From Escherichia coli (lineage in GTDB: Bacteria; Pseudomonadota; Gammaproteobacteria; Enterobacterales; Enterobacteriaceae), in assembly GCF_030013205.1 (NCBI RefSeq), contig NZ_CP122648.1: 64,000 nucleotides of DNA. The stretch is one strand, 5' to 3'. The notes beneath the pieces are model-generated. The model was not told the DNA's origin, searched no databases, and saw only the letters and a program-made list of their open reading frames with translations. Shown here in pieces: positions 24,457 through 25,959 of the stretch; within the stretch, counting starts at the first letter, position 1; each line of letters opens with the position of its first letter. The position numbers were made by a program, and so were the translations under genes.

Positions 24457-25128
24457 TTTGCGCACTCCTGACGTTTAGCAACATATGCGGCTTGCCCTGA
24501 ACACCGGGCACCACTGTATTGATGCTCATTTTCCATAGCCATTCCCTTTTGTTCATTACATCCATGTCAGTCTGAGACAGGCCTGAATCCTGTCAGCAAA
24601 GTATAAAACCTTACTTGCCTATGAATATCTACTGACTTTTCAGGAAAAAAGTCATGATTTGATAAAAATCATCAAACTCAAAAAAAAACCGCTAGTATAT
24701 TCTGAATATTCCGAATAGTTACGTAGATGAAAATACTTGTCACCACCGCTACTTAATTCCGGTGTGAAATTATTTATTTCCGCATAATCAGTCATGTATT
24801 ATTTGAAACAATTAGTTTGTAAATAATATAAATTGATAACATATCAAATACATCAAAAATACCATTCACAGGCATTATTAATATAGACATCAATATAGCA
24901 ACATCAAATTCCAATTAGTAATAAGATATGCTTTTAAATTGCATGAAAATAATTTCAAATGAGCGTTTTTTGATACTTTAGAGTGTTTCCTACCCTTTAA
25001 TATCACCGTGTAGAGTTGATATCACTACAACAGAAACATGCATGTCATTTGTTTACTTCTCATTTTACTACAGAAAAATTTATCTATTTTTCTAAACATC
25101 AGTGAAATACTCATAAAAGGTAACTATT

Positions 25129-25959
25129 ATGTCTATGCCATTAAGCAATACCCTTCAGAGCCAAATTATTACAGATAATCACTTCCTTCATCATCCAAAA
25201 GTCGACAGTGAGTTAACACGTAAATATGAACGTGCACGCCTGGATACGGAAAATATCTATCTTCTGCCTCTTGCTCGTGGCAATAACCATAATTACGATG
25301 GAAAAAGCGTTGTCGAAATTAGAAAACTTGATATTAGTAAAGAGTCCTGGCCATTTAATTATGTGACAGAAGCATGCAGAGAATCCGATGGTATTACAAC
25401 AACAGGACGTATGCTCTATCGAAACTTGAAAATCACCTCAGCTTTAGACGAAATATATGGTGGCATATGTAAAAAGGCGCATGCTGCTACAGAATTAGCA
25501 GAAGGTTTACGGCTAAATTTATTTATGAAGAGCCCTTTCGATCCTGTTGAGGACTATACAGTTCATGAAATAACATTAGGCCCTGGTTGCAATGTTCCAG
25601 GTTACGCCGGAACCACGATAGGATATATTTCAACCCTTCCAGTTTCTCAGGCAAAAAGATGGACCAATGAGCAGCCAAGAATTGATATCTATATTGATCA
25701 GATAATAACTGTCTCAGGGGTAGCAAATTCTTCCGGATTCGCCCTTGCCGCATTACTTAATGCTAATATTGAGATGGGAAATGACCCAATCATTGGTATA
25801 GAAGCCTATCCTGGTACCGCGGAGATCCATGCAAAAATGGGATATAAAGTTATCCCCGGTGATGAAGATGCGCCACTCAAACGCATGACTCTGCAACCGT
25901 CATCTCTTCCAGAACTGTTTGAATTAAAAAATGGTGAATGGAATTATATTGGTAAATAG
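25129..25959 (+). CDS. yjiC: Uncharacterised protein YjiC
   Basis: 276-aa ORF in a visibly AT-rich block with a long AT-rich upstream region. Confidence 0.75.
   Translation: MSMPLSNTLQSQIITDNHFLHHPKVDSELTRKYERARLDTENIYLLPLARGNNHNYDGKSVVEIRKLDISKESWPFNYVTEACRESDGITTTGRMLYRNLKITSALDEIYGGICKKAHAATELAEGLRLNLFMKSPFDPVEDYTVHEITLGPGCNVPGYAGTTIGYISTLPVSQAKRWTNEQPRIDIYIDQIITVSGVANSSGFALAALLNANIEMGNDPIIGIEAYPGTAEIHAKMGYKVIPGDEDAPLKRMTLQPSSLPELFELKNGEWNYIGK

Follow-up and report, generated by a model that had tools for sequence, protein, structure and literature searches.

What is the block of AT-rich DNA that lies between the Escherichia coli genes iraD and uxuR, and what does yjiC, the gene inside it, contribute to the cell? 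We addressed this question in a stretch of 64,000 nucleotides of an E. coli chromosome (contig NZ_CP122648.1 of assembly GCF_030013205.1), hereafter referred to as the window. The answer that we consider probable is that the block is an old islet restricted to Escherichia and coated by the nucleoid protein H-NS, which combines the control region of iraD with the stress-induced yjiC gene, the latter encoding a protein of the GNAT type. The block would consist of two divergently transcribed units, namely the regulatory region of iraD and a monocistronic yjiC.

The deviating base composition is readily confirmed. The iraD gene, encoding an RssB anti-adaptor of 130 amino acids, occupies positions 24064-24456 on the minus strand (NCBIfam NF010726, E=5.7e-90; Pfam GPW_gp25; likewise the RefSeq annotation of an identical strain, as the segment 24066-26099 is 100% identical to E. 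coli strain W13-16), and the whole locus is oriented in the window in the reverse of K-12. The divergent iraD-yjiC spacer, a published 'promoter island', extends from 24457 to 25128 and measures 672 bp (put at roughly 660 bp in the initial annotation), the same length as given in the literature (bioRxiv 10.1101/2021.05.20.444958); yjiC itself (276 codons) spans 25129-25959 on the plus strand. The GC content of 24466-25959 is 0.363, compared with 0.504 for the whole window. It amounts to 0.318 in the spacer (0.274 in its core, 24600-25128) and 0.401 in yjiC, as against 0.49-0.58 in the flanking genes (iraD 0.489, hypT 0.508, uxuR 0.528, uxuB 0.577), and the GC content at third codon positions (GC3) is 0.307 in yjiC versus 0.51-0.67 in its neighbours. 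Within the window, only 0.8% of 1494-bp segments and 0.55% of 672-bp segments are as AT-rich, the remaining ones all falling in the nanC-fimB-fimE-fimA region at 38.1-41.8 kb. A fine profile places the block at about 24550-26100 (GC 0.21-0.43 per 100 bp inside, about 0.5 outside), that is, it starts some 85 bp inside position 24466 and ends some 140 bp past 25959. It comprises the distal iraD leader with the promoters, yjiC and the 140-bp yjiC-uxuR spacer (between 25959 and 26100, GC 0.329), and thus reaches the uxuR stop codon, which the initial annotation had overlooked. The idlP part of the leader, to the left of the block start, has a GC content of 46-49%.

The block is also bound by H-NS, as mapped in K-12 rather than in the present strain. 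Two K-12 regions detected by chromatin immunoprecipitation on microarrays (ChIP-chip), 4552773-4554444 and 4554570-4555447 (Myers et al. 2013, PMC3688515, Table S3), were converted to window coordinates by anchoring on the unique sequence of the FNR site discussed below (centre 4554800, equivalent to 24665.5 in the window). They correspond to approximately 25022-26693 and 24019-24896 and together span all of 24466-25959 except for a gap of about 126 bp. In agreement with this, Panyukov & Ozoline 2013 included yjiC/iraD in their list of 78 promoter islands (entry 4554354_526), reported it as H-NS-bound in the datasets of Kahramanoglou and Oshima, and noted that it is flagged as foreign by the GIST, Nakamura and Lawrence predictions. 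The initial description of the spacer and yjiC as AT-rich, H-NS-bound DNA is therefore upheld, as neither a normal GC content nor an absence of H-NS was found.

It is likewise correct that yjiC has no assigned function. The protein belongs to the Pfam family DUF2686 (PF10887, the YjfZ/YjiC family; E=4e-153, 508.8 bits versus a cutoff of 25, residues 1-276 aligning to profile positions 1-285), but has no NCBIfam name, and the only phenotype described is the biofilm defect of one transposon mutant in an atypical enteropathogenic E. coli strain. When 5.8 billion proteins were searched with YjiC by a word-seeded method, the matches came exclusively from Escherichia, Shigella and E. albertii; a search with its E. 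coli paralogue YjfZ recovered E. coli proteins only and did not deepen the alignment. An exhaustive search of 1.84 billion cluster representatives with a hidden Markov model gave 39 matches, all of them short; the 15 that we inspected are fragments, with frameshifts, of the E. coli genes yjiC or yjfZ. Among the proteins searched, the family is restricted to Escherichia/Shigella. Sequence and profile searches of PDB, PADLOC and PHROG revealed no relative of YjiC.

AlphaFold2 (AF2) models were built for YjiC and YjfZ on alignments of 8 and 11 sequences, respectively, and both are of low confidence (mean predicted local distance difference test score, pLDDT, 53 and 56; predicted template modelling score 0.54 and 0.61). 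Each model shows disorder over its first 40-60 residues and a C-terminal core with a pLDDT of 70-90, and the two share an order of elements, β-α-α-β-β-β-α-β-α-β-β, that equals that of the GNAT fold (β1-α1-α2-β2-β3-β4-α3-β5-α4-β6-β7). The top 50 Foldseek matches in PDB are all GNAT acyltransferases (best E=3.5e-5), and in the fold searches with the two models 100% of the top 50-60 matches belong to the GNAT superfamily. They include BH2621 (2qml), siderophore N-acyltransferases (DfoC, SidF, NcdE, MbtK) and AAC(6') enzymes, as well as the TacT, AtaT and 7byy toxins, acyl-homoserine lactone synthases and Mom. GNATs bind the pyrophosphate of coenzyme A (CoA) by a loop of the form Q/RxxGxG/A (motif A) at the β4-α3 junction. 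The best-conserved block of DUF2686, TVxGVxNxxGFxxAALLNA, is located at exactly this junction in the models, and its equivalent of motif A (N200-S-S-G203-F-A205 in YjiC, N-A-L-G-F-I in YjfZ, with N and G invariant) is a partial match. A GNAT-like fold of YjiC, as predicted by these models, appears likely; actual acyl-transfer activity is a more tentative proposition, to which we would give somewhat less than an even chance.

The most serious alternative, less probable but worth keeping in mind, is indeed that YjiC is not an acyltransferase at all, the GNAT match being either a modelling artefact or the mark of a catalytically dead GNAT fold that acts by binding, in the manner of a regulator or adaptor (cf. 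PanZ). Several observations point in this direction and weigh against the reading that we favour. Given the low pLDDT and the alignments of only 8 and 11 sequences, the fold could reflect a prior of the network. No Acetyltransf family was found in Pfam with the full YjiC (E<=1) or its C-terminal fragments (E<=10), and the PDB sequence and profile searches gave no GNAT match. A PDB sequence hit to 6k5j (E=0.016), considered as possible support, was discarded because it aligns as a short motif in the barrel of a GH3 domain. Furthermore, motif A is imperfect, with N in place of Q/R and, in YjfZ, I instead of the final G/A; no catalytic residue could be assigned; and the neighbouring IraD provides a precedent of a structural fold repurposed to act purely by binding. 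On the other hand, two sequences only 38% identical converge on one fold with exclusively GNAT proteins among the top matches, the most conserved motif of the family falls precisely on the cofactor loop, and the confidence of the models is highest in the GNAT core. As sequence-based assignment to the superfamily failed, we class YjiC as 'GNAT-like by predicted fold' and not as a proven member. The idea that YjiC is a GNAT-type toxin (an aminoacyl-tRNA acetyltransferase like TacT, AtaT or KacT) or an H-NS-silenced secreted effector is very improbable: the gene is AT-rich and H-NS-bound, diversifies rapidly and is often disrupted or lost, and the first 25 residues of the protein, rich in S/T/N/Q/P/I and nearly charge-free, resemble type III secretion signals, but yjiC is monocistronic with no antitoxin gene next to it, as would be expected of a TacAT, AtaRT or KacAT module, its product has 276 amino acids compared with about 175 in the toxins (approximately 160-180 in the TacAT/AtaRT/KacAT type), and PADLOC and PHROG gave no match.

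The second prominent element of the block is the near-palindrome pointed out in the initial annotation, tgatttgataaaaatca at 24656-24672, which has perfect arms (ATGATTT/AAATCAT) separated by 5 nt when extended to 24654-24672. We found that it coincides with a site that is already present in the literature. The sequence TTGATaaaaATCAT at 24659-24672 matches the FNR consensus TTGAT-N4-ATCAA in 9/10 positions and is the reverse complement of ATGATTTTTATCAA, the predicted FNR site in yjiC/iraD that Myers et al. 2013 (PMC3688515, Table S6) recorded as covered by H-NS and devoid of an FNR peak in wild-type ChIP-seq (ChIP followed by sequencing). In the same study the site passed the precision-recall threshold, and a ChIP-chip peak of FNR at yjiC/iraD was detected in the Δhns/ΔstpA strain only (Table S7). 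It seems to us unlikely that the near-palindrome instead plays no role in binding and arose by chance from the AT-richness of the DNA and the stop-codon region of ytiD. Some evidence does fit this view: the sequence also encodes the last codons of ytiD; the one-mismatch FNR pattern occurs six times in the window against 2.7 expected, a number reached by 7 of 100 shuffles; the match drops to 8/10 in E. albertii and 7/10 in the divergent sequence type 38 (ST38) allele of E. coli, with a loss of symmetry; and FNR gives no peak there in the wild type. Against it stand the above-threshold score and the peak in Δhns/ΔstpA, a σ70 ChIP-seq peak near the iraD promoter P2 that is about fourfold higher anaerobically (Myers et al. 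2013, PMC3688515), earlier published evidence for iraD regulation by FNR, and the location of the site, whose centre precedes the P2 start by about 72 bp, near a class I activator position. The near-palindrome may serve as a worked example of masking by H-NS, a predicted FNR site occupied only when H-NS and StpA are missing.

The spacer holds more short inverted repeats (5) than do its dinucleotide shuffles (0.76; P=0.007). One of them, TGACTTTTcaggaaAAAAGTCA at 24633-24654 just upstream of the P2 -35 region, has only its left arm invariant across alleles and is probably not functional as a palindrome. Another, AGAAAAATttatctATTTTTCT at 25072-25093, lies 36-57 bp upstream of the yjiC start codon and contains, at 25077, AATTTATCTA, a match with one mismatch to the H-NS nucleation motif. 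We rejected the spacer repeats as conserved RNA or DNA structures because conservation is limited to one arm and there is no covariation between the two. Consensus matches to Fur, CRP, LexA, ArgR, Fis, IHF and DnaA were rejected as well, none in the spacer being better than dozens elsewhere in the window.

Both promoters of iraD fall in the spacer, as initially proposed, and the published features of the K-12 region are found on matching sequence at the expected offsets (the iraD ATG being at 24456 on the minus strand, position -n equals 24456+n). P1, with the start at -417 or 24873 (bioRxiv 10.1101/2021.05.20.444958), is preceded by a -10 element TATATT at 24880-24885 and a -35 element TTGATG at 24902-24907; a consensus scan finds this TTGATG-16-TATATT match 7 nt upstream of the start. 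P2 starts at -137, or 24593 (same source), and has a -10 element TATACT at 24600-24605. Its transcript begins with ACAGGA, and the sequence GACAGGA is indeed present at this point of the window, the 5' end being 3 nt before the GGA of the CsrA site BS1, in agreement with PMC5574718. The four CsrA sites of that study occupy 24533-24590 on the minus strand (BS2 at -112 to -103, BS3 at -90 to -84, BS4 at -78/-77). In idlP (ORF27; 24453-24536, minus strand; also annotated in W13-16), a reading frame of 27 codons, the TGA stop overlaps the iraD ATG, and CsrA represses iraD by blocking the idlP-iraD translational coupling (PMC5574718). Also present in the spacer are a putative DnaA box, TTTTCCATA, at -81 (24529-24537, plus strand; bioRxiv 10.1101/2021.05.20.444958) and a site of HusR (YnfL) from genomic SELEX, CCGCTAGTATATTCTG at 24689-24704, which is an exact match to the ytiD>idlP site in PMC12844172.

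The leader of the P1 transcript holds two more small reading frames, so that the region comprises a characterized leader with three upstream open reading frames (ORFs) that had escaped the initial annotation. ytiD (ORF47; 47 codons, 24652-24795, minus strand) is an open frame in the window and annotated in K-12; ytiC (24792-24875, minus strand) has 27 codons here versus 33 in K-12 owing to a TGG>TGA change, by which its stop comes to overlap the ytiD ATG. The annotated start codon of ytiC (-419 to -417) falls on the P1 start as mapped, and ytiC may thus be translated from a leaderless mRNA. idlP is kept in all alleles examined (L006, L004 and L009), always ending in RQECAK with its stop overlapping the iraD start, whereas ytiD is not intact in the L009, E. 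albertii and ST38 alleles. Since only the K-12-like allele has ytiD intact, what is conserved of the leader appears to be the coupling through idlP. Published data on induction by azidothymidine (AZT), independent of LexA, place the genes of the locus among the most strongly induced: ytiC 260-fold (the highest of the LexA-independent genes), ytiD 33-fold, idlP 18-fold, iraD 14-fold and yjiC 11-fold. Our own consensus scan for promoters and terminators gave counts not above those of shuffled sequences and no credible yjiC promoter.

These elements suggest how the block may work. A nucleoprotein filament of H-NS over its whole length would keep basal transcription low and would hide at least one transcription-factor site, the FNR site, which is bound only without H-NS and StpA. 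The control region of iraD would integrate many inputs, through P1 and P2, the roughly 420-nt leader and its small frames ytiC, ytiD and idlP, the CsrA sites, the DnaA box, and the HusR and FNR sites. Stress signals, namely guanosine tetraphosphate (ppGpp) with SspA, and replication stress via DnaA and its regulatory inactivation (RIDA), would override silencing at P1 and P2, and replication stress, as seen in the AZT response, induces yjiC, too. Its product, as modelled, would consist of a disordered tail of about 55 N-terminal residues followed by a domain of the GNAT (acyl-CoA N-acyltransferase-like) type and could be a stress-induced acyltransferase acting on a small molecule or a protein.

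How the block came to be there is best approached through the evolution of yjiC. The ratio of nonsynonymous to synonymous substitution rates (dN/dS) is 0.30-0.54 for yjiC; with one near-identical pair set aside, it is 0.14-0.28 for iraD and 0.01-0.06 for uxuR. As judged from sequence comparison, these values mark yjiC as a real, fast-evolving gene under purifying but relaxed selection. E. albertii has an orthologue 62% identical at the same place between iraD and uxuR, and so the gene was present before the two species split and any acquisition must be ancient. A different history is recorded in an E. coli-like strain (L009:3939-6745), in which the flanks are near-identical to those in the window (synonymous divergence, dS, 0.06 for iraD and 0.01 for uxuR), yet yjiC is only 64% identical (dS 0.48, dN/dS 0.54), pointing to an allelic replacement or mosaic limited to yjiC and the promoter-proximal spacer. 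Between alleles, the N-terminal half of YjiC, on the predicted substrate side, is 54-60% identical, compared with 70-79% for the cofactor-side core. Of 5426 complete E. coli genomes, 4895 have a detectable yjiC and 531 do not. The main allele without it, the ST38 type (L004:4562-5777), is present in about 9% of complete E. coli genomes, has approximately 410 bp between iraD and uxuR, and lacks the equivalent of window positions ~24800-26095; its IraD protein is 77% identical to that of the window and 84% to that of E. albertii, and hypT and iraD are separated by a pseudogene left over from the GimA island.

The suggestion that the AT-rich DNA was horizontally acquired thus requires qualification. 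The low GC3 of yjiC and the pattern of its alleles and of its presence and absence fit an old, lineage-restricted acquisition that is still AT-rich, and this origin, consistent also with the foreign flags, is plausible. What does not hold is any picture of a recent or recognizably mobile element: the gene is syntenic in E. albertii and we found no integrase or other mobility gene, insertion sequence (IS), tRNA gene or flanking direct repeat among the ORFs and repeats of the window at this locus, so that composition and distribution are what speak for a horizontal origin. Other facts likewise temper our reading. The H-NS data come from K-12, whose yjiC DNA shows an identity of about 95% to that of the window; the H-NS nucleation motif TCGATAAATT is not enriched (1.3/kb in 24466-25959 versus 1.1/kb in the window); and published DnaA ChIP-seq shows no DnaA signal at iraD.

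The same facts can be accommodated by assuming that the AT-richness is native, kept by selection for promoter, DNA curvature and H-NS functions, with yjiC having arisen or decayed locally, either de novo or by fast drift. The synteny of yjiC and iraD in E. albertii, where no transfer event is visible, and the lack of mobile elements are as expected under this scenario, as are the density of characterized regulatory sites in the spacer and the failure to find any donor lineage of the yjiC family among 1.84 billion representative proteins. We regard it, however, as rather improbable. Regulatory constraint does not explain a GC3 of 0.31 in a coding sequence whose neighbours have 0.51-0.67, the predicted GNAT-like fold speaks against de novo birth, the paralogue yjfZ is likewise low in GC (0.42; flanks 0.36-0.43), three published methods flag the DNA as foreign, and IraD is itself derived from a gp25-type baseplate protein of phages or type VI secretion systems.

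A bolder extension of the islet reading, which we put forward as a speculation with a small chance of being right, is that YjiC and YjfZ are fast-diversifying acyltransferases of the GNAT fold confined to Escherichia, and that YjiC, divergent from iraD and co-induced with it by AZT, could be a LexA-independent effector of replication stress that modifies a protein, nucleotide or tRNA, its variable N-terminal half setting the specificity. In any case, the models provide a prediction for two K-12 genes, namely that YjiC and YjfZ may be GNAT-like, acyl-CoA-dependent transferases, with AZT or replication stress as an inducer of YjiC and N200 and G203 as candidate residues of the cofactor loop.

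Several other features of the locus deserve mention. Between the convergent yjiC and uxuR there is a GC-rich hairpin at 26060-26088 (AAGCGCAAGG-N9-CCTTGCGCTT, ten perfectly complementary base pairs), probably a bidirectional terminator, which falls in the segment missing from the yjiC-less allele. The uxuR gene (26100-26873, minus strand) is followed by uxuB on the same strand; both the AT-rich block and the H-NS region from the literature extend into the 3' end of uxuR (26100-26200), and a published study described divergent intragenic promoters with short sense and antisense RNAs at that very end. An Rfam scan of 24000-26200 gave sub-threshold snoRNA noise only. On the other side, iadA (21923-23095) and hypT (23160-24071) are on the plus strand, and hypT converges with iraD, overlapping it by 8 bp (24064-24071). 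According to published work, the 20-kb GimA (ibeA) locus of B2 strains of extraintestinal pathogenic E. coli is inserted at the hypT-iraD junction; the present window is GimA-negative. A study of the adjacent GimA locus (yjiD-yjiE) reported that mobility and insertion elements are lacking within 10 kb and that the locus is not associated with tRNA genes. Two strains, YZ22MPE6 (L003) and SC516, bear IS1 events here, in one case inside yjiC and in the other abutting uxuR, with yjiC, iraD and hypT gone and yjiA/yjiX/btsT beside uxuR. Elsewhere in the window, AT-rich blocks occur at 38101-41800, 42701-44100 and 62201-63900 (minimum GC per 500 bp 0.27, 0.38 and 0.35, respectively), the first two of which correspond, by synteny with W13-16, to the nanC-fimB-fimE-fimA and nanM/nanC region and include listed promoter islands.

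A practical matter emerged from the comparison of yjiC with its paralogue. The forward primer of a published 'YjfZ' quantitative PCR (qPCR) assay specific for E. coli (PMC11057252) matches yjiC exactly, at 25400-25421, and has no match with up to three mismatches in the yjfZ locus of K-12; the probe and the Sanger primers of that study also read, by eye, as yjiC sequence. What the assay targets is thus yjiC and not yjfZ, and since 531 of 5426 complete E. coli genomes (about 10%) lack yjiC, the marker is not universal either, a point to bear in mind when it is used to test water quality.

It should be stressed that the interpretation of the locus is almost entirely published for K-12, the locus being one of the more thoroughly dissected control regions of E. 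coli; H-NS occupancy, the promoters, the leader mechanism, the masking of FNR and the induction by AZT are all the work of others. New here are the predicted GNAT-like fold of DUF2686, the finding that the family is strictly confined to Escherichia, the pattern of yjiC alleles and of the presence and absence of the gene, and the equation of the near-palindrome with the published H-NS-masked FNR site.

Comparison with known systems helps to place the islet. With the K-12 iraD region it shares the locus, the transcription start sites, the sequence of idlP and its stop/start overlap, the GGA sites of CsrA, the DnaA box, and the HusR and FNR sites, and it differs by about 3-5% in DNA sequence and by the shorter ytiC with its stop on the ytiD ATG. 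YjfZ (b4204) is 38% identical to YjiC over the full length, has the same predicted fold, is similarly confined to E. coli/Shigella and is also encoded in a low-GC patch, but its gene lies at a different locus (rplI-ytfB) and not beside iraD, and we found much less allelic diversity in it. Compared with the GNAT superfamily, YjiC displays no detectable sequence homology, begins with about 55 additional residues that are disordered, and contains at residues 69-118 an insertion modelled with low confidence; no GNAT subfamily can be chosen for it. Finally, the block resembles other promoter islands, including nanC-fimB-fimE-fimA 12-17 kb away, in its very low GC content and dense promoter-like signals, and shares with promoter islands the ChIP enrichment of H-NS and the association with predicted foreign genes. 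Unlike them, it has two demonstrably active and regulated promoters, P1 and P2, and is thus not transcriptionally inert, and its acquisition would predate the split of E. coli and E. albertii.

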